Shown: positions 1,528-57,019 of the stretch, piece by piece | Position numbering within the stretch: the stretch's first letter is position 1 | How the letters are laid out: each line of letters begins with the position of its first letter | Origin: Nanoarchaeota archaeon SCGC AAA011-D5 | Lineage (GTDB): Archaea > Nanobdellota > Nanobdellia > Pacearchaeales > GW2011-AR1 | Direction of reading: 5' to 3' | Length of the DNA: 64,000 bases | NCBI GenBank assembly: GCA_000405225.1 | Contig: ASMP01000001.1 | Span: forward strand, 136,496-200,495 | Made by a program: the position numbers and the translations under genes | The notes under the pieces: model-generated | What the model saw: only the letters and a program-made list of their open reading frames with translations | What the model was told of the DNA's origin: nothing | Databases searched by the model: none

Positions 1528-1591
1528 AAGAAAAAGCGGAAGATGTTTATAAAATTACTTCTGCAAGAGAGTGTTAATCATTTTCTATATT

Positions 1592-2149: not shown

Positions 2150-2183
2150 GTTGTAAATTAAGAATATAAAGATTTTTTAAATT

Positions 2184-3383: not shown

Positions 3384-3408
3384 TTTAACTAAAACTGCGA
3401 TATTTTCA

Positions 3409-4368: not shown

Positions 4369-4480
4369 TTTATATGTTATTTAAGGACAAATTTATTCAA
4401 CTTGTCACACCAATTTTACCTTTGGTGCAAGGCATAATTTTCTAAGAGTGTCTGGCTTATAAATATTGTTGTGCTTTTGC

Positions 4481-4597
4481 TTACACAGACCTTTCACGCC
4501 TTAATTTTCTCTTGCGTTTTTCCTTTCTAAGGCGCTTTCTCTGCCATTTCCACCGCATCTGCCCTTTCTTTTTCCATCGTCGTGATGAGCGTTTCAT
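4481..4597 (-). CDS. rpl41e: ribosomal protein eL41 (38-aa ORF; the 25-aa version from the internal ATG at 4558 matches eL41 length)
   Basis: Not in ORF track. Hand translation MKRSSRRWKKKGQ-MRWKWQRKRLRKEKRKRKLRRERSV; last 25 aa align about 14/25 with eukaryotic eL41 [25 protein letters not shown]. Confidence 0.5.
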   Translation of the reverse strand: MKRSSRRWKKKGQMRWKWQRKRLRKEKRKRKLRRERSV

Positions 4598-4655
4598 AAT
4601 TGATTCTGGCGAAAACTATTTATAAAGATTTCCAATTGCCTATATTTAGCTAAGG

Positions 4656-5087
4656 TTATCTGGTGACTATGTGAAGAAAAAGAAGTCTATCAAGAGCTTT
4701 TTCATCCCTGAATATATAATCTTTTATTTTTGATGCCAGCATTCTTCCATCATTGTCCAATGCCAGTTTAATCTTTTCGGCATCTTTTGACAGAATTGCT
4801 TGATTGATCACTATTATGTGCCCTCCTATGATTTTTGGATTAATTAATACATTCTCTCTTTTTATATTCAGATCATTATCCTCGTCTCTTTTGTTGTTAA
4901 TTTCAACAAAAAATGATTTTTCATTTTTTCTGTGAGCTAATAGTAAAGTTATGAGCTTATGAAAAACATAACTCAAGTTAATATAATCAATACTATCAAT
5001 AATCTTCTCAAATTCTAAGAGATTCCTAAAAATCTCTTCGTGTTCCATTTTTAGATGAGTTACACTATTCATAAAAAATAAAAGCAT
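4656..5087 (-). CDS. hypothetical protein (weak hemerythrin/HHE-like His-Glu pattern)
   Basis: 143-aa ORF; MEHEEIF...HKLITLLLAHRKNEKSFF helical His/Glu pattern only. Confidence 0.35.
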   Translation of the reverse strand: MLLFFMNSVTHLKMEHEEIFRNLLEFEKIIDSIDYINLSYVFHKLITLLLAHRKNEKSFFVEINNKRDEDNDLNIKRENVLINPKIIGGHIIVINQAILSKDAEKIKLALDNDGRMLASKIKDYIFRDEKALDRLLFLHIVTR

Positions 5088-5173
5088 AACTTTTATATAA
5101 AATCTTGTAAACTTTTACCAGTGATAAAAGTAAAAATTGACTTTTTCATAAAATTTTGCAAATTCTGTAACAA

Positions 5174-5782
5174 TTACTTCAAAATCTTACCAGTTTCCAG
5201 ATGCCACAGGTATAAATCAAGCTCCCCGAGGCCCAGATTTGTTTTTTCAGCAATTTTTTCCAGAACAGACTCAATTTCAAGATATTTTTTTTCTGTCAGT
5301 GTTTTTGGCTTTTCAGTTAATCCGTTTCTAACAAGAAAGTCAATTATATGGAAATCTATTATTGCATAATTACTGAAACCTATATTGCGCAGGAAATGAG
5401 ACGCTTCTTTCATTCCGAGGCCCTTTATGTTTTTAACAAGAGATTCCCTGATATTTTCATCTTTAAGGTTTATTTTTTTGAAGTTTTCCCTTGCTTCAAT
5501 GATAAACTTTGCCCTTGAATTTGGAAACCTATGTCCCAAACGAGTCAATAATTTAGATAACTGTTTCTCAGATAAATGCAAGAAACCGTCTCCAATTTCC
5601 TTCTGTATTTTTATTCCGCCTCGCGCATTGAAATTTGCAGTAAGAAGGCAGAAGCAGAGCTCCTTGAAAATTTCCTCATTGGATTTTGCACCCAAGTCCC
5701 CAAATTCTTTCATTCTTTGGGAAATTATTTTGCTAATAGAAGAAACTTTCAGCTGCTCAATTTTGAAAATTATCTCTTTCAT
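5174..5782 (-). CDS. ogg: 8-oxoguanine DNA glycosylase/lyase, archaeal Ogg2-like HhH-GPD enzyme
   Basis: GLGMKEASHFLRNIG hairpin-helix with Lys and downstream AIIDFHI Asp; about 200 aa; 4-nt overlap with nth. Confidence 0.65.
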   Translation of the reverse strand: MKEIIFKIEQLKVSSISKIISQRMKEFGDLGAKSNEEIFKELCFCLLTANFNARGGIKIQKEIGDGFLHLSEKQLSKLLTRLGHRFPNSRAKFIIEARENFKKINLKDENIRESLVKNIKGLGMKEASHFLRNIGFSNYAIIDFHIIDFLVRNGLTEKPKTLTEKKYLEIESVLEKIAEKTNLGLGELDLYLWHLETGKILK

Positions 5783-6399
5783 CTTATTTTTCTGATGTTT
5801 TCAATGATTTTATCTTTTTGTTTCCTGCTTGTATGGGTTTTTCCAAAACGCACAAGAGTTAAATTAATTTTGTTCCAGTATTTTTTAGGGAATAGTCTCC
5901 TTAGCTCTTCCTCTACTTTATGGGGGTTTTTATTCCTTGCCCAGCCAAGTTTTCTTGAGATATAAAAAACATGCGTGTCAACAGGAAGCGCATCTTTTCC
6001 CTGTTCGGCTAAAAAAACATTTGCAGTCTTTCTTCCAACACCCGGAAGCGAAAGCAGCGCCTCAAAATCATAAGGAACTTTACCTTTGAAATTTTTAACC
6101 AGATATTGAGAGCATTTAATGATGTTCTTAGCCTTAGTCTTATAAAAGTTTACAGGCCTTATTATCTTGCTGATATTCTTTATCTTTCCTTTAGCCAGCT
6201 TCTGGGGATTCTTGTATTTTTCAAATAATTTTTCTGCTACAGGAATTGTTGTCTCGTCCCTGGTTCTCGCAGAAAGAATTGTTGATATAAGAATTTCATA
6301 GTCATTTTTCCAGTCTTCAGCAGCCAGACGCATGGGTCTTCCAAGCCCGGCAAGTTCTTTTAACTGTTTCATAGCTGTTTTTGTGTCCATTTTAAACAT
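5779..6399 (-). CDS. nth: endonuclease III-like DNA glycosylase without the C-terminal 4-Cys cluster
   Basis: ILSARTRDETT, LPGVGRKTANVFL (catalytic Lys), VDTHV (Asp); C-terminus has no Cys residues. Confidence 0.8.
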   Translation of the reverse strand: MFKMDTKTAMKQLKELAGLGRPMRLAAEDWKNDYEILISTILSARTRDETTIPVAEKLFEKYKNPQKLAKGKIKNISKIIRPVNFYKTKAKNIIKCSQYLVKNFKGKVPYDFEALLSLPGVGRKTANVFLAEQGKDALPVDTHVFYISRKLGWARNKNPHKVEEELRRLFPKKYWNKINLTLVRFGKTHTSRKQKDKIIENIRKIR

Positions 6400-6413
6400 A
6401 ATTTAAATCAAAA

Positions 6414-6426
6414 ACGCCCCGACCGA
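6414..6426 (-). repeat. copy A of the tRNA-Glu 3'-end core (plus-strand acgccccgaccga)
   Basis: 13/13 identity to the 3' end of both tRNA-Glu genes; lies between the toxin gene stop and the nth start. Confidence 0.8.
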
Positions 6427-6448
6427 ACTACGACAGGGCGTAGGACAT

Positions 6449-6772
6449 TTATGTAAATTTAAACAATTTTTCATAATCCTTATGATCCATCCAGTCAAGA
6501 ACTATGGCTAAAACTTCAACTTCATTATTTGTAATGGTATAAAGCAATCTCCAATCCTTTCTAAGATTATAAATCCAAAGATTATTTATATTATATCTCT
6601 GAATTAATTCTTTTGGAATTAGATTCTTTTTTACATTTCTTCCAAAGAAGGCATCTTGTCTTATTTTATTAAGAGCATTTTCTATTTCCTTAAAAAGTCT
6701 TTCATCTTCATCTTTTAGTCTCTCAAATGCTTCCTTCAAATCATTATCTGCGAAGATTACTTTGGATTCCAT
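6449..6772 (-). CDS. RelE/ParE-family toxin
   Basis: C-terminal LWIYNLRKDWRLLYTITNNEVEVLAIVLDWMDHKDYEKLF resembles the RelE/StbE pattern; 16-nt overlap with upstream partner. Confidence 0.6.
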   Translation of the reverse strand: MESKVIFADNDLKEAFERLKDEDERLFKEIENALNKIRQDAFFGRNVKKNLIPKELIQRYNINNLWIYNLRKDWRLLYTITNNEVEVLAIVLDWMDHKDYEKLFKFT

Positions 6773-7065
6773 TCCAGGTTTTTTCTATCTTTGTATTTTT
6801 TATATAATGCTGGATTCCAGATATAAACAACATATCCTTCATTATCATAAGCAATTTTTAATGTGCTTTCAAGGTATTCCATAATCACTTGAAAAGTTTG
6901 CCACATCACTTTTTTTGGTAGTTTATTAAAAAGCTCTGTTTTCTTGTAAGCACCAGAATTATCATCAATGAACTTTTCTACCATTAAAACAGTTTGAAGA
7001 GTTGGGCTTCTGGCTATCTCATTAGTTTCTGCATAAGTTTTCCTGCCCTTTATTTGCGGTTGCAT
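6757..7065 (-). CDS. putative antitoxin/partner of the RelE-like toxin
   Basis: Overlaps toxin start; start set to MQPQIK (7065) because a TTTATAAAG box lies about 25 nt upstream; no family recognised. Confidence 0.4.
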   Translation of the reverse strand: MQPQIKGRKTYAETNEIARSPTLQTVLMVEKFIDDNSGAYKKTELFNKLPKKVMWQTFQVIMEYLESTLKIAYDNEGYVVYIWNPALYKKYKDRKNLEWNPK

Positions 7066-7133
7066 TATAGTATCAATTGATATGACTTTATAAATCTTTT
7101 TCTTTTTCACCTATCTTTAACCTGAAGTTATAG

Positions 7134-7144
7134 CGCCCCGACCG
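7134..7144 (-). repeat. copy B of the tRNA-Glu 3'-end core (cgccccgaccg)
   Basis: 11-nt match at the boundary between the lipoprotein unit and the toxin-antitoxin unit. Confidence 0.6.
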
Positions 7145-7202
7145 TAACCAGTATAAAGTTTTACGGGTTAGGTACAATAAGGTGTAAGAAAGAAGTTTAG
7201 AT

Positions 7203-7733
7203 TTATTTTTTCTTTGTTTTGTTTGCAGAATCTAAATCTTTAAAATAAACTTCAGCAGCAACCAAATATCCTTCTACCCTAATGCTATTAACTTCTTGGA
7301 TATTATACTTTCCACTATTTACTATAGCCTCTAATCTTGGGTTAATCTCCTCTTGTATATTATTCAAGTGATTTTTATCACTATGAATAAAAATAACTCT
7401 TAATCTTGTATTATCACAATCTTCATCTTCAGCTACACTATACTTAACTTCCGCTAAAGTTAAATAAACATCTGAATAAGCAGTCTTAACAGAAATAATA
7501 TTATATCCTCCCCTATTGATAACATTTTCCAGTTTCTCTCTAATCTCCTTTTGTTGATTATTCCAGTGATTTTTATCACTGGTTATTGTCATAATCCTGA
7601 CGTTTTTTCCATCCTTTATAGTTTGACAAAAAACATTTTTTTGTTGTGTTGTTATAGTATCTTGACCACATCCAGAAAAAGCAAGTGCTCCTCCCAGAAC
7701 CAATGCAGCTAAAGTATTCTTTATTTTTCCCAT
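7203..7733 (-). CDS. lipoprotein with an internal two-fold domain repeat
   Basis: Signal peptide plus lipobox-like AFSGCG; repeated segments ITSDKNHWNNQQKEI...GGYNI and IHSDKNHLNNIQEEI...GKYNI. Confidence 0.6.
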   Translation of the reverse strand: MGKIKNTLAALVLGGALAFSGCGQDTITTQQKNVFCQTIKDGKNVRIMTITSDKNHWNNQQKEIREKLENVINRGGYNIISVKTAYSDVYLTLAEVKYSVAEDEDCDNTRLRVIFIHSDKNHLNNIQEEINPRLEAIVNSGKYNIQEVNSIRVEGYLVAAEVYFKDLDSANKTKKK

Positions 7734-7758
7734 AAATTATTTAAAAATTCTCTCTTTT

Positions 7759-7809
7759 TAAACTTTATGGTTTTGTGTTACTTTCAAGTTAAGACACGCC
7801 CCGACCGAG
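7759..7809 (-). repeat. copy C: tRNA-Glu 3'-end core (7796-7809) plus 38-nt trailer/promoter module (7759-7796)
   Basis: Core 14/14 identical; trailer 37/38 identical to 8302-8339 next to the real tRNA. Confidence 0.85.
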
Positions 7810-7865
7810 TGTGTATCAAAAGTGATACAAGCCCCAGATATTTAGAAAAGTTTAGAGAAGTAAAT

Positions 7866-8276
7866 CTAATGAATAATCTCTATATCATCTGGATCAACAA
7901 TTCCCAATCTATCAGAATTAAATAATTCTTCACCTGAAATCCTTCTCTTTAACCTCAATGGAAATCTTATTTTTGTTCCAATTTCAATAGTTGCTGCGAG
8001 ATTGTACGCTGTGTGGGATCCTGAACTTCCAGACATATCGTCTACATCCACCTCAATTGTATAAATCCCCTGTGGTGTTTCGACTCTTAATCCATAATTT
8101 GGATTTCCTAATTTAACTGACTCGTTTCCGAATAATGCTCCACTTGATTCTTCAATTCTTGAAATATTCCCATATTCACTAAGAACTCTTCCTTCCACAA
8201 AATTTTCAGGTTTTATTCCACAACCAACCACACCCAATGTCCCAGCCAAAATAAGGCTTGTTAATATTTTTCTCAT
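7866..8276 (-). CDS. small lipoprotein
   Basis: Signal peptide and LGVVGCG lipobox-like Cys; unrelated in sequence to the neighbouring lipoprotein. Confidence 0.6.
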   Translation of the reverse strand: MRKILTSLILAGTLGVVGCGIKPENFVEGRVLSEYGNISRIEESSGALFGNESVKLGNPNYGLRVETPQGIYTIEVDVDDMSGSSGSHTAYNLAATIEIGTKIRFPLRLKRRISGEELFNSDRLGIVDPDDIEIIH

Positions 8277-8341
8277 AAATTTTTGATGAGTTTCCTATTT
8301 ATAAACTTTATGGTTTTATGTTACTTTCAAGTTAAGACAAA

Positions 8342-8459
8342 CGCCCCGACCGAGATTCGAACTCGGGTCACGGCCGTGCTTCATCGCTTCGCTCTGAATC
8401 AAACGTCAAAGCGTTGCCATTTGAGAGGGCCGCATTCTTGGCCTCTGAACTATCGGGGC
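8342..8459 (-). tRNA. tRNA-Glu(CUC) with a 45-nt intron after position 37
   Basis: Hand-folded: GCCCCGA/TCGGGGC acceptor, D arm GTTC..GAAT, anticodon stem CGGCC/GGCCG, loop CTCTCA[intron]C, T arm CCGAG TTCGAAT CTCGG; exons nearly identical to the intronless UUC isoacceptor. Confidence 0.85.
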
Positions 8460-8460
8460 T

Positions 8461-8505
8461 TTGCTCCGGAGTTCTGGTCATTCAAGACCCATGAACTATC
8501 GGGGC
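8461..8505 (-). other. orphan tRNA-Glu 5' fragment directly upstream of tRNA-Glu(CUC)
   Basis: GCCCCGATAGTTCA (14/14) then a diverged D loop and GAATG, followed by the palindrome CTCCGGAG; no matching 3' half adjacent. Confidence 0.5.
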
Positions 8506-8643
8506 TTTTATATTTTAATGAGAAGAAGATTGATATTTAAATTTTTGTTAGTGTTACAAATTTTAATTTAATCTTAATTGTTTTTATATTTATATAGGCA
8601 TATTTACATCAAAAATTCCTTCTTCTTCAGAAAAAAATCAGGC

Positions 8644-21418: not shown

Positions 21419-23944
21419 TTAGAAGATATCCAGGGTTTCTTCCACTAACTCGGCATCGCTAGGACGAGTTTCTTCCACATTTTCTTCAATTTTGGTGTAT
21501 TCTGTTCCTGGAATTACAGGAAGTTCATCGTCCAAACCAGCGTATTTTTTTATTTCCATTTCTTTGGATAAGTCTTTTTCATGGCCTTCAAGCACCATCT
21601 TTGTTTCTCCTTTCCCTGGTTCTTCCATCTCTCTCGGTTCTGCTGTTTCCGCCGTTCTTTTTTCTAATCCTGCAATATATTCTGCCATGTCTCCGGCCAC
21701 ATCGGCGTTTACGCTTATGCTGTCTATTCCCCTTTCGACTAAAAATTTGACCATTTCTTTTTTGCTCCCTGCCTGTCCGCAGATGCTTGTTTCGACATTG
21801 TTTTCTTTGCATATTTTTATCACATATGCAAGTTGACTCAAAACAGAAGGGTGTAAATCATCATAAAGGCTCTGGACCTGTTCATTGCCCCTGTCAACAG
21901 CCAGGGTATATTGCGTGAGATCGTTTGTTCCAAAAGACACGAAATCAACTCCGCCTTCTTCGCAGATTTCCCTTATGATTTGGACAGCTGCAGGAGTTTC
22001 TATCATTATTCCTATCTTTGCATTTCTGAAACTTATTTCTTTCAGGATATCCTTTAGTTTTTTCACTTCTTCCAGTGAAATCACCTGGGGAATCAAGATT
22101 CCTATGGATTTTCCTTTTTTATTATCAGAAACACGTTTCATCGCATTCAGTTCTGCTCTGAGAATCTTTGGATTTTTCAGCGAGGACCTGATTCCGTGCA
22201 TTCCGAGCATGGGATTTGCCTCAACTTTTTTAGGAGAGCCCTCAAGATCTTGAAATTCATCGCTCCTTACATCTGAAGTTCTCACCCAGATATCATTGAA
22301 ATAATCAGATATTTTATTGATGCCTCTGAAAATCATCTCCTCGTAATCCCCTATTCTTCCTTTTTCAAGGAAATAATTAGGATGTTTCCCCGATTCTGCA
22401 ATTATTCCCTCAAGCCTTGCAAGACCCACGCTCTTAAGCCCTGTTTTGGATGCACGTTCTGCAAAGCTCGGAAGATCGAGAATTATCTTGAGTTTGGTTC
22501 TTGTTTCATGTTCAACAGGCCTGATTTCTTTCTGGACAGCCTTTGAAACTCTTCCTTTGTAAATTTTTCCGGTGAACCCATCCACAGTTACTATCTCCCC
22601 CTCTTTCAGCTTCCTCGTGGCGTCCTGTGTTCCCACCACAGCAGGAATTCCCATCTCCCTGGAAACAATCGCCGCATGTGCAGTTAGCCCTCCTTCGTCA
22701 GTTATTATAGCCGCAGCCTTCTGCATCGTGACGACCATATCGGGATTAGTCATCTCTGTAACTAAAATATCTCCCTGCTTCACTTTTTTGAAGTCTTCTG
22801 TTCCATGAACTATCTTTATTTTTCCAATACCTATTCCGGGAGAAGCTGCGAGTCCTTTCAAGACCACTTCTCCATTCATTTCTTTCATGTCTTCTGAGGC
22901 AAATCTCTTTTTCAGAGTAGTTATCGGCCTCGTCTGGACTATATATATTTCATTTTTTTCTATTGCAAATTCAATGTCCTGGGGTTTTTGATAATGTTCC
23001 TCAAGCCTCAATGCAATTTCAGCGAGCTTTTTTATTTCATGATCTTTCAAGACCTGTTGCCTTGTTCTTTCTTCCGTGAGCTTCACTATCTCTTGGCTGC
23101 CAGCCGCATTTCTGATTATTGCAATTTTTTTGTTTCCTATCTCTTTTTCCAAGATTTGCAGTCCGCTTTGGGAAATGATATATCTGTCAGGTGTTATTTT
23201 TCCTGAGACAATGCCCTCGCCAAGCCCAAAAACAGCCTCTAGAATTACATCTTCCTTTTTCATGGAAGGATCCTTGGAGAATATGACTCCTGATTTGTCT
23301 GAATCAACCATCCTCTGAACAACTACGGCAAGGCTTGCATCTTCGTGCTCGAATCCTTTATTCTTTCTATAATATGTTGCTCGGGGAGTAAACAGGGAAG
23401 CAAAGCATTTTTTTACAGATTTTAGCAAATCAGCGCCCCCTTTTACATTGAGGAAAGTTTCCTGCTGTCCGGCAAAGCTCGCCTCTGCCAAGTCCTCTGT
23501 TGTGGCACTGCTTCTTACAGCAACAAAAACAGGATCAGGGGTTTTTTTGATTATGTAATGTGCTGGTTTGTCTTTTATATTTGAATCCTCTGCACCAAGA
23601 AACTCATAAGCCTCGAGAATTTCCGCGCTCATCCCCTCCGGGAATTTACCAGACTCTATCAACCCGCGGATTTCCTTTGTTATTTCATCGAGCTTTTCTG
23701 TATCTTCATAATTTATTTTTTCCAGGAGAATTTTTATCTTATCACCGAGCCCTGATGTTTTTATAAAATGGTTGTAAGCCTGCGCTGTGACAACAAAGCC
23801 AGGAGGCACGAGAATTCCAAGGTTGTAAATTTCTGCCAAATTTGCGCCCTTTCCACCGGCAACGCTTCCGGATTTTTTATTTAGCTCAGAAAACCACTTC
23901 ACAAACTCATGTTTTTCTGCCGAAACCTCTTTTTTTATATTCAT
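21419..23944 (-). CDS. ppsA: phosphoenolpyruvate synthase with an acidic C-terminal extension of about 80 aa
   Basis: ATP-grasp N-terminus GGKGANLAE, swivel His motif GGLTAHAAIVSREMGIPAVVG, C-terminal FVSFGTNDLTQY. Confidence 0.9.
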   Translation of the reverse strand: MNIKKEVSAEKHEFVKWFSELNKKSGSVAGGKGANLAEIYNLGILVPPGFVVTAQAYNHFIKTSGLGDKIKILLEKINYEDTEKLDEITKEIRGLIESGKFPEGMSAEILEAYEFLGAEDSNIKDKPAHYIIKKTPDPVFVAVRSSATTEDLAEASFAGQQETFLNVKGGADLLKSVKKCFASLFTPRATYYRKNKGFEHEDASLAVVVQRMVDSDKSGVIFSKDPSMKKEDVILEAVFGLGEGIVSGKITPDRYIISQSGLQILEKEIGNKKIAIIRNAAGSQEIVKLTEERTRQQVLKDHEIKKLAEIALRLEEHYQKPQDIEFAIEKNEIYIVQTRPITTLKKRFASEDMKEMNGEVVLKGLAASPGIGIGKIKIVHGTEDFKKVKQGDILVTEMTNPDMVVTMQKAAAIITDEGGLTAHAAIVSREMGIPAVVGTQDATRKLKEGEIVTVDGFTGKIYKGRVSKAVQKEIRPVEHETRTKLKIILDLPSFAERASKTGLKSVGLARLEGIIAESGKHPNYFLEKGRIGDYEEMIFRGINKISDYFNDIWVRTSDVRSDEFQDLEGSPKKVEANPMLGMHGIRSSLKNPKILRAELNAMKRVSDNKKGKSIGILIPQVISLEEVKKLKDILKEISFRNAKIGIMIETPAAVQIIREICEEGGVDFVSFGTNDLTQYTLAVDRGNEQVQSLYDDLHPSVLSQLAYVIKICKENNVETSICGQAGSKKEMVKFLVERGIDSISVNADVAGDMAEYIAGLEKRTAETAEPREMEEPGKGETKMVLEGHEKDLSKEMEIKKYAGLDDELPVIPGTEYTKIEENVEETRPSDAELVEETLDIF
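21445..21472 (-). repeat. 28-nt sequence shared with the rps6e 3' end (encodes ETRPSDAEL)
   Basis: ctaactcggcatcgctaggacgagtttc is 27/28 identical to 60828-60855. Confidence 0.85.
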
Positions 23945-31774: not shown

Positions 31775-32086
31775 TTACCTGATTAGCATAATAAGAAAGA
31801 TAAATACTACAACTATTATAACTAGGAAAATGCCTAAAGTATATGTTAGCAGATAAAGGGCTTCTTTCTTTTTGCCATTTAAGTACCATACAATTGGCCT
31901 TCCAAAGACCAGAGTTCCTGTAAAAGCTGCTGAAAAAACAAAGAGCATAAGCATAAAAATAGGAACAATAATTGACTTTTCATCTCCAAAAGACTGGCTT
32001 AAAAGATGTATGAATGAAGCAACAGTAGTTACATAAAGAGCTGTTCCTAAAGAATTAATTGTGGCATATTTTAATATGTCTTTCAT
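31775..32086 (-). CDS. small three-TM membrane protein
   Basis: Start set to ATG at 32086 (MKDILKY); the track start at 32128 is GTG and abuts repeat D. Confidence 0.45.
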   Translation of the reverse strand: MKDILKYATINSLGTALYVTTVASFIHLLSQSFGDEKSIIVPIFMLMLFVFSAAFTGTLVFGRPIVWYLNGKKKEALYLLTYTLGIFLVIIVVVFIFLIMLIR

Positions 32087-32128
32087 AAAAATGTTACAGA
32101 GTTTTAATTTAAAATCTTTATGAAACAC

Positions 32129-32143
32129 ACGCCCCGACCGAGA
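32129..32143 (-). repeat. copy D of the tRNA-Glu 3'-end core (acgccccgaccgaga)
   Basis: 15/15 identity to 32739-32753 at the real tRNA-Glu(UUC); lies just beyond the MazF gene stop. Confidence 0.85.
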
Positions 32144-32158
32144 GTATAGAGAGCGTAG

Positions 32159-32491
32159 CTATTCTTTCAAGAAAGAAATTACTTTATTTACAATCTCTTT
32201 GAATTTTTCGGGTTTTAGGGAACCAATTTTATATTTTATCAATGATTTTTCAATAGAACCAATTTTATCAATTCTAATAAAACTTTCTCTCTTTAAATTA
32301 CCCCGCTTAAAGTCTTTATTTTCTATTTTTATCTCAACAGATTTCTCATAAGAGGAGCCGGTGATTTGATTAACTATTACGTCCTTGCCTTTAGGAATTT
32401 TAAGAATTAATACAGGTCTTCTTTTCGATTCCTTCAAACTTGAAAAAGGAAAATCTATGACAATTATATCTCCCTTTACAAGTCCTTCCAT
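32159..32491 (-). CDS. mazF: MazF/PemK-family toxin
   Basis: GDIIVIDFPF...KRRPVLIL...VNQITGS...ESFIRIDKIGSI pattern. Confidence 0.75.
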   Translation of the reverse strand: MEGLVKGDIIVIDFPFSSLKESKRRPVLILKIPKGKDVIVNQITGSSYEKSVEIKIENKDFKRGNLKRESFIRIDKIGSIEKSLIKYKIGSLKPEKFKEIVNKVISFLKE

Positions 32492-32694
32492 GCTTCATCC
32501 TCTTCTTTGTTAAGCCATGTTTTAGCAAAAGACTTTTCAGAAAGAATAGCGTCTTCAGGAATAGACTTTTTCAGAATTATTTCATCGTCTTTTCTGATTA
32601 CAATTAGTTTGTCTCCTTCATTAATCCCTTTACGTAGATCTAAAGGAATTACTACTTGTCCTCTTGAACTCATCTTTGTTGTATCAATTATCAT
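32476..32694 (-). CDS. AbrB/MazE/SpoVT-family antitoxin
   Basis: SSRGQVVIPLDLRKGINEGDKLIV swapped-hairpin motif; overlaps toxin start by 16 nt. Confidence 0.75.
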   Translation of the reverse strand: MIIDTTKMSSRGQVVIPLDLRKGINEGDKLIVIRKDDEIILKKSIPEDAILSEKSFAKTWLNKEEDEAWKDL

Positions 32695-32740
32695 AAATAA
32701 GATTAATCTTACTTCTATTTAAATCTTTGTTTTTTAGAAA

Positions 32741-32813
32741 CGCCCCGACCGAGATTCGAACTCGGGTCACGACCGTGAAAGGGTCGCATTCTTGGCCTCT
32801 GAACTATCGGGGC
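32741..32813 (-). tRNA. tRNA-Glu(UUC)
   Basis: Hand-folded 73 nt: GCCCCGA/TCGGGGC, anticodon stem CGACC/GGTCG, loop CTTTCAC, T arm CCGAG TTCGAAT CTCGG. Confidence 0.9.
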
Positions 32814-33024
32814 TCGCTCATTTCATTCGTTCACCCTATACCGCTTAAGCGCAGTCGTCCTAGGGCTTGATTGTTAATTTTCACTAGGAATTCTTTTAAT
32901 TTCAGCCCAAAATAGTTTTTAAAGATAACTAATCGGTGATCTGTAAAGTTAGCGACGCCTATTTTGTTACAAAAAGATATTCGGGTGCCAACACCTTTAA
33001 AAACTTCGACCGAAACAATTTTTC

Positions 33025-33660
33025 ATGAGAATGACACAAGGACTTGGAAGCTCCAACTGGCGCGCCGAGATGTGGGCCGAGATATTTGACAGAGCAAGAA
33101 AGAAGGGCAAAGTTTTCGAAAGGACTCTGGGCGAGCATAATTTTCAGTACGCGCTTATAAATTCTGCAGACAGATACGGAAGAATATCCGTCTCGACAAC
33201 AGGGGCGCAGTATCGCTACAGCGGGCGTTCGGTCACGTTCTGGATAAAGGACGAAGAAAGCGACGAGTTGCACGTTGGCGTATGTTACGGGCCAGGCCTG
33301 AATTTTGTATTTGAAGCCAACACTCCGGCGCCTTTCAGGGATTGTGTAGGGCTGCACGAGCACATAGAATCAAAGTTTCTGGGAAATCCGAAAAGCCACA
33401 CCCTTGCGTGCAGCGCGGAGCTCGGGGAAGTTTTCAGAAGGAAAACGAAGTTTGTCGGCGCCTACGCCAGATGGCTGGTTGAACTGCATGACAATTCTAA
33501 AACCCCTGAAAAGGGATATTTTACCCGTGCCGTGCCGGATTTCATGAGAATCTTAAGAGAAGGAAAATTATCTCCCTTGGAAATGCTGCAAGAATTCAAG
33601 GAGCGAGTAGATTCCATAAAATTTTTAAATGTCGCAGTGTCAAATAGACATCAAAGATGA
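33025..33660 (+). CDS. hypothetical protein in a conspicuously GC-richer segment
   Basis: 211-aa ORF; many GC-rich codons (gcg, cgc, ggc, acg) unlike its neighbours; its stop overlaps the 3' end of tRNA-Ile. Confidence 0.5.
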   Translation: MRMTQGLGSSNWRAEMWAEIFDRARKKGKVFERTLGEHNFQYALINSADRYGRISVSTTGAQYRYSGRSVTFWIKDEESDELHVGVCYGPGLNFVFEANTPAPFRDCVGLHEHIESKFLGNPKSHTLACSAELGEVFRRKTKFVGAYARWLVELHDNSKTPEKGYFTRAVPDFMRILREGKLSPLEMLQEFKERVDSIKFLNVAVSNRHQR

Positions 33661-33831
33661 GCCTGCTCGGATTTGAACCGAGGACCCCTGCCTCTCTTAG
33701 ATGAAAACCTCCTGTTGGTTTCCCACACTTCCAGCTTCCCAAGATTATAATCTTGGTATCTAAAAGATTCTAATCCTTATGAATCAGATTCCTATAAGAG
33801 CAGTGCTCTGACCAGGCTGAGCTACAGGCTC
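33658..33831 (-). tRNA. tRNA-Ile(UAU) with an intron of about 99 nt after position 37
   Basis: Hand-folded: GAGCCTG/CAGGCTC acceptor, A73, D arm GCTC AGCCTGGTCA GAGC, anticodon stem CTGCT/GGCAG, loop CTTATA[intron]A, T arm CTCGG TTCAAAT CCGAG. Confidence 0.7.
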
Positions 33832-50857: not shown

Positions 50858-51025
50858 TATTAATATTGAAGACAGAAGGTAAGATTAAATTAGGAGAGTA
50901 AGTATTAATTCTTAAATAGTTACAGAATAGAGGGAATGTTAAGTATTCGGGAGATGAATAAGGTGTTAAGGGGCGGGAGTTAGGAGTTTAATAATATTTT
51001 TAAGTAAGGTTAGTTTAGGTTATTT

Positions 51026-53485
51026 ATGCACGAATTACAAAAGATTAACACTCTTGGACTTGAAAATATTAACTATGCTATTGTTGAGAAAACTCGCCCT
51101 ATGATGTATAAGGCGATGAAATATTGGGGCAAAAAACCAAGTAACATTTTCAAAGATTATATTAAACATTATTCTAATAAAAATGAGATAGTTCTTGACG
51201 CTTTTGCGGGTAGCGGTGTTTGTCCTTTGGAAGCAATACAAACAGGCAGAAAGGCAGTAGCAGTTGATTTAAATCCAATTTCGGGTTTTATAACAAAGAT
51301 GTTGGCTACCCCCTTAAATATCTCAAAATTTAGGGAAGAATGGGTTAAAGTTAAAGCAGACTTTTGTAAGTTTGAAAAAGGAGCAGAATTATTTTTAACA
51401 ACTTGCCCAAAGTGTAAAAAACAGGCAAGGATAATTAATGTTCATTATGATGGAAGCCCAACAGAAATAAGATATAAATGTTCTTGTGAAAAAAAGAACG
51501 GAACCAAAAAAATAGATGATAATGATTTAACATTAATAGAGAAAGCAAATAAAACTAAAATAAGTTTTTGGTATCCAAAGGACAAATTTCCGAATACAGA
51601 CACTTTTGATGGGGCAAAAAAGAATGTAGGGGATTATTTCTATAATCTATGGACTAAAAGAAGTTTGTATTCTCTTGCGTATATGTTTAATAGAATTAAT
51701 GATATAAAAGATGAGAAATTAAAAGAGTTTTTCAAATTTGCATTTATTTCTATGCTTCATCTATCAACTAAAATGGTTTCTGCAAGAAGAGAAAAAAGTG
51801 AAAGACCAGATAGCGGAAGTTGGGGCAGACCTGCATATTTATTTCCAAAAAGGCATTTAGAACAAAATCCCTTTTTACTATTTGAGAGAGCAATAGACGA
51901 TAGACAAGGTATCGTAAAGGCAAAAGAAAGTTCAAATGAACTTTTAGATAATAAAACAAAATTTGCAAAGAATTTTGAAGATTTAAAAGATAATGATAAA
52001 AATTTGTTAATTTTGAAAAGAAACTCTATTGAACTATCTAAATTTATTCCAAATGAGAGTATAGATTTTGTTTTAACAGACCCGCCATACGGGGGATTAA
52101 TAAAATATTTTGATTTGAGTTCTATTTGGTCTATATGGTTAAAGGGTGAAGAGCAAAATAAAGAGTTTGATATTCCCTATGATGAAGAAATAACTCTTGA
52201 TAAAAAAAGAGATTTTGATTATTATGATAAAATGTTGTATAAAGCATTTTCAGAAGTTAATAAAATATTAAAGACTAATAGATACTTAATAGTTACATTC
52301 CATAATTCACAGCCAAGAATATTTAATTCAATTATGAAGTCTTGCGTTAATGCGGGATTTGTTCTTGAAGAAATCTTATTTCAACAAAATAAAAGGGCTT
52401 CTGAAAGTGGTGTTGCCAATCCGTGGGGGACAGCAATAAGCGATTTTTATTTAAGATTTAGAAAACCAACAAAAGAAGAGAAGAAGATTGAGGGATTAAA
52501 TAGAGATGGATTTGAAAAACTTGTTGTTAATTCTGCTAAAATTGTTCTTGCAAAAAGGGGACAGCCCAGCGAATTATACAATATTTTAAGCGGGGTTTAT
52601 ATGGAATTATACAAATACGGACAATATCTTAAAGCAGATACAACAGAAGATATTGCAGACATCTTAAAAAAAAGAATTGGAAAAGAATTTGTTTTAGTTG
52701 AAGCAGATGAAGAAAACATAAAAAAGGGAAAAAGATGGTGGTTTAGTGAAGAGGAAAAAAGAAAGCATAAATTAGAAACTCCCCTGTCTGATAGAATTGA
52801 AACTGCAATAATCCAAACATTCCACGATAAAATAAAAATTTCCTATGATGATATACTACAAACACTTTTTGTAGAATTTCCAAATTCATATACGCCTGAT
52901 AATAGTAGTATAAACAATTTAATAAAAGAATATGGAACTAAACAGAAAGATGGAACTTGGATGTTAAAGAGTAGTTTCAAAAAAGACGAAAGTAAGCATA
53001 TTGTTATTGAAAGAATTTTAGCAGAGATAGGAAAAAAACTTGGCTATAAAATTTGGTGTCCTGATAAGGGAAGAGATAATAGACTTCAAGAATTATGTGA
53101 AAGTCGTCTCGGTTTTGACTTTGAGGGCAAAGAAAGGGTTGAAAAAATAGATATTCTTTGGTTTAAAGAGGATAAGATTTATTATGCTTTTGAAGTTGAA
53201 AATTCTACTTCAATAACCTCTGCTTTAGAGAGATGTTCTAATTTACCAAATGGGGAAGATACTAAAAAAATGATTTTGATACCAAGTGAGAGAGCAAAAT
53301 TTCTTAATAGAAAAATAAAAGAACCTATGTTTAAAGAGAGATTTATTTTAGATAAATGGCGTGTTGCTTCTTATGAAGAATTAGAAAAACTATCAAATAA
53401 GAAAAGTATAAGTGAAGAAGACTTTGATTTGATTTTTTCACAAGCCCTAAAAATAAAAGAGGGCATCCAATCTAAACTTTTCTGA
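51026..53485 (+). CDS. Zn-ribbon adenine-type DNA methyltransferase (COG1743-like) fused to a C-terminal nuclease-like domain
   Basis: KYWGKKPSNI...VLDAFAGSGVCPLEA...AVDLNPIS (motif X/I), CPKCKK...CSCEKK ribbon, TDPPYGGLIKYFDLSSIWSIWL (motif IV); C-terminal IDILWF...YAFEVENSTS PD-(D/E)xK-like segment. Confidence 0.7.
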   Translation: MHELQKINTLGLENINYAIVEKTRPMMYKAMKYWGKKPSNIFKDYIKHYSNKNEIVLDAFAGSGVCPLEAIQTGRKAVAVDLNPISGFITKMLATPLNISKFREEWVKVKADFCKFEKGAELFLTTCPKCKKQARIINVHYDGSPTEIRYKCSCEKKNGTKKIDDNDLTLIEKANKTKISFWYPKDKFPNTDTFDGAKKNVGDYFYNLWTKRSLYSLAYMFNRINDIKDEKLKEFFKFAFISMLHLSTKMVSARREKSERPDSGSWGRPAYLFPKRHLEQNPFLLFERAIDDRQGIVKAKESSNELLDNKTKFAKNFEDLKDNDKNLLILKRNSIELSKFIPNESIDFVLTDPPYGGLIKYFDLSSIWSIWLKGEEQNKEFDIPYDEEITLDKKRDFDYYDKMLYKAFSEVNKILKTNRYLIVTFHNSQPRIFNSIMKSCVNAGFVLEEILFQQNKRASESGVANPWGTAISDFYLRFRKPTKEEKKIEGLNRDGFEKLVVNSAKIVLAKRGQPSELYNILSGVYMELYKYGQYLKADTTEDIADILKKRIGKEFVLVEADEENIKKGKRWWFSEEEKRKHKLETPLSDRIETAIIQTFHDKIKISYDDILQTLFVEFPNSYTPDNSSINNLIKEYGTKQKDGTWMLKSSFKKDESKHIVIERILAEIGKKLGYKIWCPDKGRDNRLQELCESRLGFDFEGKERVEKIDILWFKEDKIYYAFEVENSTSITSALERCSNLPNGEDTKKMILIPSERAKFLNRKIKEPMFKERFILDKWRVASYEELEKLSNKKSISEEDFDLIFSQALKIKEGIQSKLF

Positions 53486-54293
53486 AATTAAGGATATATT
53501 GATGATGATGATTTATTTTGTAAGCATAGGGGTAACCAAAAGGATATAATGGTTTGCTATTTTGCATTAAGACCACAGACCCAGAAAATTCAAAACCTAT
53601 TTTTTGCATTAACTTAATAACATCTCCGTGAGCATTAGTTTCTTTTTTCTTGACTGTGAAATCGCTTATAATTATTGAGCAGTATTTATTTTCTCTTAAT
53701 CTTTTATAAACTTCTTTCATAATTTTCCCAAATAAGACTAAAAAATCACTATAAGATTTTTGATTTCCTACATCATCAGGATATTCGGAATAATATTCAA
53801 CCCCCTGCCTCCTTTGACTACCATCTGACCTTATGCCCATTCCCTTGTTTCTTAAAATATTGTGATAAGGCGGAGATGTTATACAATAATCAATTTTATC
53901 TATTTCAGGAATTTTCTTTAAGGAATTTCCTTTAATTATTTTAATATGCCCATTTATTTTTACCCCTAACTTTTTTAATCTTCTTTTTGCAAGTTCGCAA
54001 TATTTTTTACTTAAATCTATTCCTATGGCTTTTCTGTCTTCTAATGCAGAAGCGATTAAAGTTGTCCCACTACCCATAAAAGGGTCTAAAACCAGCATAT
54101 CCCTCTTCGTAAATAATCTTATTAATTTTCTTATGTCTTTTATAAGAAATGGAGCAGGATGTTCAAATGCGTCTTTATCTTCCGCACATCTTTCACTAAT
54201 CCAAACACTTTTAGTTAGTTGTAACCATTCCTTTCCTGTCAGATTATTTATTTTATTTCTTTTGTCGTATTTTCCTTTCATTTTTCTTAACAT
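53472..54293 (-). CDS. SPPY-type (N4-cytosine-like) DNA methyltransferase, motif I before motif IV
   Basis: HPAPFLIKDI...VLDPFMGSGTT and CITSPPYHNI; start uncertain (ATG at 54320, 54293 or 54281); 14-nt convergent overlap with the 819-aa gene. Confidence 0.75.
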   Translation of the reverse strand: MLRKMKGKYDKRNKINNLTGKEWLQLTKSVWISERCAEDKDAFEHPAPFLIKDIRKLIRLFTKRDMLVLDPFMGSGTTLIASALEDRKAIGIDLSKKYCELAKRRLKKLGVKINGHIKIIKGNSLKKIPEIDKIDYCITSPPYHNILRNKGMGIRSDGSQRRQGVEYYSEYPDDVGNQKSYSDFLVLFGKIMKEVYKRLRENKYCSIIISDFTVKKKETNAHGDVIKLMQKIGFEFSGSVVLMQNSKPLYPFGYPYAYKINHHHQYILNFRKV

Positions 54294-54420
54294 AATTTTT
54301 AGTAAATTTAGAAAGAACATCTGTTGCAGTGGTATCTAATTCAAGACAAATCATCTTGAACTTTTTCCAAACATCATCTTCTATGTAAAAATTATGGGGT
54401 CTTTTCTTATCCCTTTTCAT
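54253..54420 (-). CDS. ribbon-helix-helix protein (55 aa), candidate controller of the methylase
   Basis: Not in track; MKRDKKRPHNFYIEDDVWKKFKMICLELDTTATDVLSKFTKNYVKK...; overlaps the methylase start. Confidence 0.5.
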   Translation of the reverse strand: MKRDKKRPHNFYIEDDVWKKFKMICLELDTTATDVLSKFTKNYVKKNERKIRQKK

Positions 54421-54490
54421 ATATAATCAAAAGAATGGTAATTTATAAAACTTCTCTCCCTCTCTCCGTCTCTCCAAAGTAGTTATAGAA

Positions 54491-54628
54491 TTATTTGCCT
54501 TTCTTCAAATTCTCTTTAATGATTTTCTCTAACCAATCAGAAATATCTATCTTCTGCCTTATGCAGAATATTTTAACGTCTTCCCATAGTTGAGGACTAA
54601 CCTTAATGCTTGTTGTCTTCCTTTCCAT
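54491..54628 (-). CDS. ribbon-helix-helix protein (45 aa)
   Basis: Not in track; MERKTTSIKVSPQLWEDVKIFCIRQKIDISDWLEKIIKENLKKGK. Confidence 0.5.
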   Translation of the reverse strand: MERKTTSIKVSPQLWEDVKIFCIRQKIDISDWLEKIIKENLKKGK

Positions 54629-54726
54629 AGAGTATTATGGTATTATTGCTTTATAAACATTTATATTCAGTATTATATACTACCCAATTACTATAAGTTT
54701 AAATACTATCAGTATTATAGTAGTAT

Positions 54727-55014
54727 ATGGATAGCACACAAGACATTAAGCAATTCTCAAATACAAGAGAGCAAAGGGCAAGAGCCATATTAGAGATAGG
54801 AAACCCTGAAACTCTTGACGAATTTACCTATTTAGTTCCCTCTCAAAATTCAGACAGAAAATATAGGGTTACGCATATAGACGCTTATAGTTGCGAATGT
54901 GAAGACTTTAAGAGAAGATGTCAGGGAAAAAATCTTTATTGTAAGCACATAAAGGCAATAATTCTATTCCAAAGAATTAAGCAGAAATATGAAGTCAAGC
55001 CAGAAGTAGAGTAA
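54727..55014 (+). CDS. SWIM zinc-finger protein
   Basis: YSCECEDFKRRCQGKNLYCKHIKA (CxC...CxH). Confidence 0.55.
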   Translation: MDSTQDIKQFSNTREQRARAILEIGNPETLDEFTYLVPSQNSDRKYRVTHIDAYSCECEDFKRRCQGKNLYCKHIKAIILFQRIKQKYEVKPEVE

Positions 55015-55911
55015 GAAATAGAGTTAATCATAGACACGCCACAAAAGGACTTATGCCCTGAATGTAATTCTGAAAATCTGATTAAATCAGGGATTAGAAA
55101 AACAAAGATAGGCACAAAGCAAAGATATGAATGTAGGAATTGTCATAAGAGGTTTGTATTAAGTCCAATAAAGAACATAAAAGGCAACACTAAATTAGTT
55201 TGTCTTGCTATGGATTGTTATTATCGTGGTTTGTCTTATAGAGATATAAGCCATCAATTTAATCAGTTCTATGGTTTAAAGATTTCACACGTTACAATAA
55301 GGGAATGGGTTTTGAGATTTTCAAGAGTTATGGAAAAATACTCTGAAACAATAAAGCCACAGATTAAAGGAACTTGGAACGCAGACGAAACTTTGGTTTT
55401 AACAAAGCGTGGAAAGAATAAGCAAAATACCAACTTTGATTATGTCTGGAATGTTATGGATAATAAAAGCAAATTCCTTTTAGCGTCTGAATGTTCAGGG
55501 CGTTCAAGAAGTTCAAAAGACGCACAGAAAGTTATGACAGAAGCATATCAACAAAACGGAAAAATCCCATTTCAGATAATTGTTGATGGTTACGCTGGTT
55601 ATCAAGATGGAGTTAGAAAGACATTTAGGAATTGGGGTAACGAAAGAAAGGTTAAATTTACATCAATTAAAGGGCATAGGAAAGAGATAAACAATAACGC
55701 AATAGAAAGCCATCACTCACATCAAAAGGAATTTCAGAAAGTAAGGCGTGGAATAACAAAGGTTCAGGATTATCAAGATGGCTTTAAGGTATTCCATAAC
55801 TTTGTAAGAAAGAACGCAAGACAGGGCTTAACTCCTGCGGATAAGGTTGGAGTTGGAGTAAAAGGAAACGCTTGGGAAACTATGCTCTTGAAAGGGTTGA
55901 AATCATCTTAA
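55015..55911 (+). mobile_element. IS6-family-like DDE transposase with N-terminal zinc ribbon; first ATG only at 55210, inside the conserved HTH
   Basis: CPEC...CRNC ribbon, HTH LSYRDISHQF...HVTIREWV, DDE context WNADETLV / IIVDGYAGY / NNNAIESHHSHQKE. In frame with the SWIM ORF across the TAA at 55012-55014. No terminal inverted repeats found. Confidence 0.65.
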
Positions 55912-56041
55912 CTTTCTTAACCTTCTTATTATGTTTCTTATTTCTACAATATCCCTACGATTAATTTTTTCTGAATGAGCAATCCTATTTCTTCTTTCAA
56001 TAAATAGTCTTTTTAATATTTCTCTTTCAATATCTTTCCTA

Positions 56042-56401
56042 TTACTTCTTTTTCTTATTACCATTATCTATTCCAAAACTCATATCTAAAATAGTAGTCA
56101 ATTCCCGATTGGAAATTTTCTCTTCTACGAGTTCATTATTTAATTTTTCAGTTTTATCTTCAAGTTCTTTCATTAAATCTGAATATTCTTTTTTTATTAC
56201 TTCTTCTGCATAATAATTACCAATTATATAAATCGCAGGGAGCACTATGACTTCTATGCTTAAAAACAAAACAGCATTATCTGGATAAAAACGACTTAAC
56301 CCAATAAATGTTACTGCTGTAAGAGTTGCAATTATGGTAACCCAAATTCTTATTCTAAGCATTCCCATAATTTCAATAATCTCTTTAATATATTTAAACA
56401 T
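56042..56401 (-). CDS. two-TM membrane protein with coiled-coil tail
   Basis: 119-aa ORF with hydrophobic helices followed by a charged helical C-terminus. Confidence 0.4.
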   Translation of the reverse strand: MFKYIKEIIEIMGMLRIRIWVTIIATLTAVTFIGLSRFYPDNAVLFLSIEVIVLPAIYIIGNYYAEEVIKKEYSDLMKELEDKTEKLNNELVEEKISNRELTTILDMSFGIDNGNKKKK

Positions 56402-56521
56402 TACTTATAACTCCCGCAACTTAACAGAAGAGGAGAAAACGACTATAACTCCCTAATTCCTAACACACTACAGAATAGAAAGATTTATTAACACTTCATT
56501 TACTGAATAATATTAAGTAAA

Positions 56522-56881
56522 ATGGATAGAAAAAATATTATAATTGCATTATCACATCATCAAGATATACAAAAAGATGTTGATGCTTTAGTATTTAGAA
56601 TAGCTGGAATTGGAAAAAGAAATCCAATGATTGACAGACTTCAAGAAGTAATTGATGCTGAGGAAAAAGTAATCAACTTTATTAAAGATTCTAAAGAAAT
56701 TTGGGAAGATACAAATAGAGTGAGATTATATGCTTCCGCGTCTCTAAAAGATTATCTTATTTCTTTTAAAGAATATGAAAGATTATGGGCTTCAAGAAAA
56801 AACGAAGGAACTCCAGAAAAAGATTGGTATAAAATGCAGGATGAATTAGTTAAATATATTCGCAATTATTCTTTTAGATAA
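56522..56881 (+). CDS. hypothetical protein
   Basis: 119-aa ORF; no motif. Confidence 0.4.
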   Translation: MDRKNIIIALSHHQDIQKDVDALVFRIAGIGKRNPMIDRLQEVIDAEEKVINFIKDSKEIWEDTNRVRLYASASLKDYLISFKEYERLWASRKNEGTPEKDWYKMQDELVKYIRNYSFR

Positions 56882-57019
56882 AATTGAATAAAATCTTTCT
56901 TTAATATATCAATAAGTGAGTGTGAGAATATTGGCTTGACAAGAATTAAAATAAGGTAACAAAACAATGTGCGAGTGGAATGAGCGAACGTAATATATAA
57001 TAAAATTACAATAAACTAT

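Follow-up and report, generated by a model that had tools for sequence, protein, structure and literature searches.

A MazEF toxin–antitoxin unit inserted between copies of a tRNA-Glu 3′ end in a Nanoarchaeota genome

In the genome of Nanoarchaeota archaeon SCGC AAA011-D5, a two-gene operon of the MazEF toxin–antitoxin type lies immediately downstream of an intact tRNA-Glu(UUC) gene and is closed on its far side by a second copy of that gene's 3′ end. The stretch analyzed here, referred to throughout as the window, comprises 64,000 nt of contig ASMP01000001.1 (positions 136,496-200,495, forward strand) and has a G+C content of 37%. A comparison with related genomes shows that the MazEF unit is an insertion with exact boundaries, that its target has been reused, and that other cargo is found at the same place. 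We propose, with a probability of about 0.72, that the unit (32144-32739) is a miniature, integrase-less integrative unit flanked by attachment (att) sites, lying between attL in tRNA-Glu(UUC) and attR at the distal repeat.

The MazEF unit and its tRNA-Glu target

The features of the locus, by window coordinate, are as follows.

31775-32128, minus strand: native flanking gene for a small membrane protein (cluster c7), which directly follows tRNA-Glu in empty-site genomes
32129-32143, minus strand: distal core (attR), an exact 15/15 match, read as the displaced original tRNA 3′ end
32144-32158, minus strand: cassette-side arm next to the distal core (minus-strand CTACGCTCTCTATAC), a half-conserved arm motif
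32159-32491, minus strand: MazF/PemK toxin, 110 aa (PF02452, 3.6e-13)
32476-32694, minus strand: MazE/AbrB-type antitoxin, 72 aa (PF04014, 2.9e-8; TIGR01439, 4e-9)
32695-32739, minus strand: candidate promoter/operator region carried by the cassette, its putative roles read from the sequence
32740-32754, minus strand: proximal core, consisting of the last 14 tRNA nt and 1 trailer nt (minus-strand TCTCGGTCGGGGCGT, exact match)
32741-32813, minus strand: intact, intronless tRNA-Glu(UUC), the integration target on the attB/attL side (ARAGORN; aragorn -i; Rfam RF00005, 62.2 bits)

The plus-strand 15-mer ACGCCCCGACCGAGA occurs here in two perfect copies, at 32129-32143 and 32740-32754. An earlier reading of this DNA, made without database searches (the sequence-only reading), had described the repeat as the tRNA end plus two trailer nucleotides; the 15/15 identity stands, and the composition is corrected to 14 tRNA bases and one trailer base. 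With up to two mismatches allowed, the window holds five copies of the 15-mer against 0.01 expected (100 dinucleotide-preserving shuffles), the remaining three belonging to a first locus at tRNA-Glu(CUC). The insert begins 1 nt past the end of tRNA-Glu(UUC) and leaves the gene unbroken, and the interval separating the two copies measures 596 bp. The open reading frames (ORFs) in this interval are mazE and mazF and nothing more, as the sequence-only reading had stated for a unit of about 0.6 kb, the only other features being a palindrome and a TATA-like box in front of mazE. Neither terminal inverted repeats nor a terminator-like site were found in the unit. The distal core has no T-arm and no 5′ acceptor strand, its RNA fold is undistinctive (z -1.3), and no 3′-end repeats were found for the other tRNAs of the window (Gln, Thr, Ile).

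The upstream mazE ORF overlaps mazF by 16 nt, and both Pfam scores are above cut-off. Domain content and gene order fit a type II MazEF (PemIK) system, which would suggest a functional toxin–antitoxin pair; such systems likewise combine an AbrB-fold antitoxin gene overlapping a PemK/MazF toxin gene with a palindrome in the promoter, and the window operon itself shows nothing unusual. The TATA-like TTTAAATA (32716-32723) and the palindrome TAAGATTAATCTTA (32698-32711) both lie in segment 32695-32739, which is kept in every MazEF homologue, the tRNA-unlinked ones included, and which probably serves as promoter and operator. Homologues of MazF fall into 253 clusters at E ≤ 1e-10; among the 120 listed, identity ranges from 69 to 100%, and the named ones come from Nanoarchaeota.

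Evidence for insertion comes from a scan of species-representative genomes in which a 25-mer covering the T-arm and acceptor of tRNA-Glu served as the query and returned 77 loci. The related genomes are metagenome-assembled genomes (MAGs) labelled Woesearchaeota, Pacearchaeota or Nanoarchaeota, and the fetched loci are designated by L-numbers. The site is empty in L031, L047 and L016, where a homologue of the gene at 31775-32128 lies within 34-54 nt after tRNA-Glu. From the distal repeat onward the window aligns with the tRNA end and flank of these three loci, and the window bases that precede the distal repeat are not tRNA sequence. Relatives with a common ThrRS and 225-aa gene order differ in what they hold at the position: Fic in a core-ended unit of 949 bp in L027, a 77-aa ORF in L013, a 151-aa ORF in L066, and nothing in L058.

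The same operon is also found at other tRNA-Glu genes. A 622-bp MazEF unit stands directly after an intron-bearing tRNA-Glu(CUC) in L015, and another follows tRNA-Glu(CUC) in L007, with an antitoxin 81% identical to that of the window and a more diverged toxin (44%). MazEF is the second unit after tRNA-Glu(UUC) in L201 and the fourth in L210/211, and it lies beside a different flank in L209 and L218/219. The toxins of these tRNA-linked units, L007 excepted, are 72-94% identical to the window's, and the distal cores are degenerate in L007, L201 and L209 and missing in L210.

Taken together, the empty sites, the alternative cargo, the presence of MazEF at other tRNA-Glu genes and the same-strand placement of downstream cores described below bear out the proposal of the sequence-only reading that insertion at tRNA-Glu is targeted and is not a local duplication. 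The pair is not fixed at this position in relatives, and units carrying Fic or the 77- and 151-aa ORFs occupy it in related bins. That two independent isoacceptor genes are used also holds, both in the window (UUC and CUC) and through the MazEF homologues at the CUC gene elsewhere. Nor is the repeat a general terminator or processing motif, since it tracks the local tRNA and takes the form CGGTTGGGGCG at tRNA-Asp loci.

Arrays, arm motif and integrases at tRNA genes

The first locus of the window is an array, with the following features.

8342-8459, minus strand: tRNA-Glu(CUC) with a 45-nt intron, the second target (aragorn -i)
6414-8355, minus strand: array of three integrase-less units
7866-8276: cargo, 136-aa lipoprotein-like ORF
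7203-7733: cargo, 176-aa lipoprotein-like ORF
6757-7065 and 6449-6772: cargo, 102-aa ORF and 107-aa RelE/YoeB-like toxin
5779-6399: native HhH-GPD gene beyond the array

Cores at 8341-8355, 7796-7810, 7134-7145 (degenerate, 1 mismatch) and 6414-6428 delimit units of 530, 648 and 705 bp, and the 3′ halves of the two tRNA-Glu genes are near-identical over 40 nt (repeat D11). Empty sites exist for this locus as well, the native HhH-GPD gene directly following the tRNA in L068, L050 and L037. The toxin–antitoxin pair of locus 1 has a counterpart, with identities of 82% and 77%, at the distal end of the L118 integrase element; the homology begins at the pair's own promoter, and there is no core ahead of the pair in L118. 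The distal end of locus 1 folds distinctively (z -3.6) owing to partial complementarity between its arm and the core. No match in Pfam, NCBIfam or PHROGs was obtained for the 136-, 176- and 102-aa proteins, nor for proteins of 117 and 211 aa. As a separate observation, the two lipoprotein-like units share 75 nt near their cores (7722-7796 and 8265-8339) at 85% identity, rising to about 95% in the core-nearest 37 nt, a segment that was not found in the other fetched loci; their two proteins have only the signal peptide and lipobox in common (8/20 aa).

The distribution of cores was examined by counting occurrences of the 13-mer CTCGGTCGGGGCG (≤2 mismatches) up to 5 kb away from 79 tRNA-Glu genes. 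Extra copies number 22 downstream on the same strand, 0 downstream on the opposite strand, 0 upstream on the same strand and 2 upstream on the opposite strand. The tRNA-to-core spacings run from 81 to 4009 bp, about half of them below 600 bp. Across the 22 extra copies the last 10 nt of the core, GGTCGGGGCG, usually followed by T, are near-invariant, the 5′ part is variable (CTC, TTC, ATC, CGC and others), and identity to the tRNA spans 10-19 nt. This range of lengths, together with the lack of terminal inverted repeats, fits att sites and does not fit target-site duplications of fixed length.

Some core-bounded intervals are non-coding. Mini-units of 81-231 bp occur in L009/L040, L041, L048, L049, L051 and L038, with further ones in L201 (3710-3851) and L210 (3945-4216); some are arranged in tandem, such as two of 83 bp in L048, and several end with a longer, interrupted T-arm-like piece. 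They could represent tRNA 3′ fragments in decay, or what excision left behind.

A mirror-image duplication was observed on the 5′ side of these genes, where the first 14 nt of tRNA-Glu (GCCCCGATAGTTCA) are repeated upstream on the same strand in 22 cases, against 0-2 in controls. The upstream copies lie 45-316 nt from the tRNA, mostly 45-65 nt, in about 20 of the loci L002-L078. The example in the window is at 8460-8506 on the minus strand, with the 14-mer copy at 8492-8505 and a TATA-like box upstream of the upstream copy. The 31-51 nt between such copies usually form a hairpin, tandem 91-nt units are present in L070, and all of these units are too short for gene cassettes.

A 15-nt arm motif, TACRC-N5-7-YGTAG, was found directly 5′ of the core in five units from different genomes that carry four different cargos (MazEF, a RelE-like pair, Fic and an 82-aa membrane protein). 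It has 12 matches in 2.6 Mb, 5 at cores and 7 elsewhere, and its stem shows a compensatory change from G:C to A:T. The locus-1 unit of the window has the full motif, and the window MazEF unit preserves the first half only (CTACGC, 32153-32158). The suggestion of the sequence-only reading that a short motif beside the core is a cassette-side recombination site thus holds in part: a conserved arm motif exists, but only half of it is preserved in this unit.

Clustering of the ORFs downstream of the tRNAs revealed two types of tyrosine recombinase (PF00589) whose genes start 22-87 nt after tRNA-Glu. The first family, of 385-410 aa, is encoded in L043, L075, L023 and L012, and also directly after the distal core in L044, a tandem of a 3.3-kb integrase-less unit followed by an integrase unit; the second type is a 402-aa XerC/D-like protein in L030. 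At least 373 relatives of the first family are present in metagenomes of the Joint Genome Institute (JGI), in which the integrase gene follows tRNA-Asp, Glu, Gly or Gln at a distance of 75-100 nt and in the same orientation. The integrase has a distant match in the Protein Data Bank (PDB) to XerA (5hxy, E 1.5e-4) and matches PHROG integrase families; a phage collection gave no match to it, and no description of this abundant family was found in the literature. A scan of IMG/VR viral contigs with the 16-mer ATCTCGGTCGGGGCGT returned chance matches inside high-GC bacterial phage genes and no attP element of DPANN archaea.

Complete integrase elements close with a matching core and are followed by further small core-bounded units. 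L118 presents in order tRNA-Glu, the integrase, an element of about 7.3-7.4 kb, a core, a 946-bp MNT/HEPN toxin–antitoxin unit and a core; L160 presents tRNA-Asp, a 5.4-kb element, the core CGGTTGGGGCG, a 461-bp unit and a core; and L182 has three cores downstream. Autonomous elements with the same att specificity as the window unit are present in other genomes of the clade (L043, L075, L023, L044, L118). The cargo of the L118 element (1425-7480) includes a reverse-transcriptase-like gene of 373 aa, large ORFs of 596 and 231 aa, and a RelE-like toxin–antitoxin pair, and by eye only the 251- and 293-aa ORFs of L160 resemble an AbiEi/AbiEii pair. The cargo of both elements looks oriented towards defense or addiction.

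Mode of movement and competing explanations

On our best explanation, the MazEF unit either travelled as a miniature cassette mobilized in trans or derives from a larger element by deletion, and such units accumulate in tandem arrays. As the unit has no integrase, the enzyme would have acted in trans, or the unit would be what is left of a larger element. In the mechanism that we propose, a tyrosine integrase recombines a short core of a circular donor, consisting of GGTCGGGGCG(T) and a few variable T-stem bases, with the same sequence at the tRNA 3′ end. The donor would bring a new tRNA 3′ end, and the original end would be pushed to the far side, beside the old downstream gene. The predicted empty site would read ...TTCGAATCTCGGTCGGGGCG joined directly to TGTGTTTCATAAAGATTTT, and the predicted circle junction ...GAATAGCTACGCTCTCTATAC-TCTCGGTCGGGGCGT-TTCTAAAAAACAAAGATTTAAATAG. 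The integrase would act in trans and would probably be supplied by the autonomous 4-8 kb elements of the clade, in which its gene lies 75-100 nt after the tRNA. Either tRNA-Glu gene would be usable because both share the 3′ half, and repeated events at either could build tandem arrays in which the newest unit is nearest the tRNA. A self-regulated toxin–antitoxin cargo would favor its own retention and may also act in defense. The identity of the enzyme, the circular intermediate, the mobilization in trans and the activity of the toxin–antitoxin pair are inferred.

Several observations weigh against this explanation. No integrase homologue was found in the unit or in the 64-kb window by tblastn with both integrase types, and the link to the integrase family therefore rests on other genomes. 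Neither an excised circle nor polymorphism within a population was seen, the exact proteins being on one contig only: exact-protein searches with MazF and with the membrane protein beside the unit matched the source contig alone. The short contigs L218 and L219 showed no terminal overlap of the kind expected from a circle and are ordinary fragments of tRNA, MazEF and flank. The core is short. In L198-200, L205-207 and L213-215 the same MazEF operon stands apart from tRNAs and cores, and the module must therefore have more than one way of spreading. Lastly, the locus-1 toxin–antitoxin pair is internal to the larger integrase element of L118, which favors an origin by deletion over a dedicated cassette.

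The alternative that best survives, although we consider it distinctly the less probable, is that the MazEF unit is an immobile remnant, in which case a full-size integrase element once occupied tRNA-Glu and an internal deletion left the toxin–antitoxin operon beside attR, where it is now fixed. The position of the L118 counterpart of the locus-1 pair, just inside attR with no core before it, is what such a history would predict, as are the decayed distal cores of L007, L201 and L209 and the absence of one in L210. Archaeal elements are reported to lose the integrase gene after integration (PMC8371274), and bacterial elements have been described that decay to units keeping attL and attR (PMC5704250). 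However, the MazEF units are near-equal in size (596-622 bp) and have the same promoter-to-arm limits at two tRNA-Glu genes and at array positions 1, 2 and 4. Such identical limits at different targets make repeated, independent deletions less likely than the movement of a small unit. The occurrence of one arm motif beside the core in units with four unrelated cargos, and of an identical 145-bp unit at both tRNA-Glu genes of one MAG (L009, L040), also speaks against a remnant.

It is very improbable that the arrangement arose through homologous recombination or gene conversion between tRNA-Glu loci, or through local duplication, by way of the shared 3′ half and core and with no site-specific recombinase. 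The near-identical 40 nt of the two genes would offer a substrate, and the unit common to L009 and L040 could be read as its product, but the cargo differs between the two loci of the window, and the homology at the distal end is a mere 10-19 nt. Such exchange would leave the first acquisition, the empty sites and the variety of cargo across species unexplained, and integrases of this target specificity exist. Insertion of a transposon type, the repeats being target-site duplications made by a target-specific transposase, has even less to commend it. The insert is flanked by direct repeats, and an IS6-like transposase is encoded inside a 4-kb unit of L072; a DDE transposon with target-site duplication, however, would have terminal inverted repeats and a duplication of fixed length, whereas the window unit has no such inverted repeats and the direct repeats measure anything between 10 and 19 nt. 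In many units the distal copy departs from the tRNA sequence in its 5′ part, as an exchange between element site and host site would have it, and the genes adjacent to the tRNAs are those of tyrosine integrases, not transposases. That no mobile element is involved, the 15-mer being a chance repeat or else a terminator or functional RNA motif that follows a resident toxin–antitoxin operon, can practically be dismissed, since a T-run after the core and a possible weak hairpin stand against a chance expectation of 0.01, a motif that matches whichever tRNA precedes it (the tRNA-Asp variant of L160), the undistinctive fold and missing tRNA arms of the distal copy, the lack of a terminator-like site, and empty sites with which the idea is in contradiction.

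Returning to the att-flanked unit, a broader and more speculative proposal, which we consider rather unlikely as it stands, is that archaea of the Woesearchaeota, Pacearchaeota and Nanoarchaeota type possess a gene-capture platform akin to an integron that uses tRNA genes as its anchor. Cassettes of one operon each, with a tRNA-end core and the arm motif TACRC-N5-7-YGTAG, carrying toxin–antitoxin, Fic or small membrane protein and lipoprotein cargo, would be excised as circles by a dedicated, widespread integrase acting in trans and reinserted at any tRNA with the same 3′ end. If this were true, variable cassette arrays could be built in very small genomes with no recombinase required per unit.

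Little is known of how DPANN archaea, whose genomes are tiny, exchange genes. The data presented here point to tRNA-Glu, and also tRNA-Asp, Gly and Gln, genes as active integration hot spots in genomes of the Woesearchaeota/Pacearchaeota type, where very small units bounded by att cores, many of them toxin–antitoxin or Fic modules, pile up in arrays. The flexible gene pool can be traced by searching the DNA that follows tRNA genes for repeats of their 3′ ends, and for annotation the att-bounded arrays account for partial tRNA fragments and for contig breaks at these tRNAs. Mini-unit arrays, an arm motif common to several cargos and a DPANN integrase family of high abundance together form a wider pattern that is worth comparative study.

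Neighboring features and relation to known systems

Beyond tRNA-Glu(UUC) the window carries, on the minus strand at 33658-33831, a tRNA-Ile(UAU) with a 99-nt intron that was detected by the ARAGORN intron search only and missed by default tRNA and Rfam scans; the order tRNA-Ile then tRNA-Glu is also seen in L201 and L213. The spacer between the two genes (32814-33657) measures about 845 bp in the window versus about 45-150 nt in L027 and L201, and no tRNA-Ile 3′-end repeat bounds it. It has a GC-rich leader of about 85-110 nt (32814-32900) with 84% identity to L072, and a GC-rich (0.48) plus-strand ORF of 211 aa (33025-33660), for which Pfam, NCBIfam and PHROG gave no match. Elsewhere, a 28-nt repeat family, CTAACTCGGCATCGCTAGGACGAGTTTC, has one copy at 21.4 kb (21445-21472) and three near-tandem copies at 60.8 kb (60771-60855), the latter inside or beside a GC-rich ORF. 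A block at 51000-57000 is low in GC (0.27-0.31, compared with 0.37 over the whole window) and contains an 819-aa ORF along with several small ones; it may likewise have been acquired.

The closest known counterparts of the MazEF unit are the integrative elements of tRNA and tmRNA 3′ ends (PMC6563490, PMC8371274, PMC3146451), in which the gene is regenerated, a direct repeat of its 3′ end marks the distal boundary, att cores are short, and tandem arrays form with newer units nearest the gene. The att cores of integrated elements in Thaumarchaeota, for example, are 8-26 bp (PMC6563490), and the ssrA islands of Dehalococcoides have 20-bp repeats and use a serine recombinase (PMC3146451). Autonomous members have their integrase gene by attL, whereas the window unit is 0.6 kb, encodes no integrase and resides in a DPANN host. 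A 2021 review of archaeal tyrosine recombinases leaves the DPANN lineages unmentioned, and our literature searches found no description of these elements.

The lack of integration and transfer genes between attL and attR, together with tandem placement at a tRNA 3′ end, recalls the cis-mobilizable elements (CIMEs) that take part in the accretion of streptococcal integrative and conjugative or mobilizable elements (ICEs/IMEs; PMC5704250). The unit could in principle be mobilized by an integrase that a related element supplies. CIMEs, however, are decayed bacterial ICEs/IMEs of several kb that are moved by conjugation (PMC5704250), whereas the units described here are no longer than one operon (83 bp to 1.5 kb), with several cargos sharing one arm motif. 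The tycheposons of Prochlorococcus (bioRxiv 10.1101/2020.12.28.424599) are likewise tyrosine-recombinase elements at a handful of tRNA genes in small, streamlined genomes, with older material pushed outward, partial tRNAs between units, and integrase-less remnants and cargo forming variable islands. They measure 10-20 kb, carry replication modules and have been demonstrated to excise, whereas the units here are far smaller and their excision is a prediction.

Integron cassettes likewise form arrays in which every unit, a single gene or operon, ends in a recombination site. Toxin–antitoxin cassettes are a common cargo of chromosomal integrons. Nevertheless, the system in the window is not an integron: the window has no IntI and no attI or Pc platform, and it is a tRNA gene that anchors the array. 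Integron cassettes are closed by attC hairpins of 57-141 nt and are promoterless, whereas the window cassette is closed by a direct repeat of 10-19 nt with at most a 5-bp hairpin and has its own TATA box and palindrome. Insertion at a tRNA end is a well-known architecture, and what is new in this case is not the kind of system but the host lineage, the DPANN archaea, in which such elements have hardly been described.

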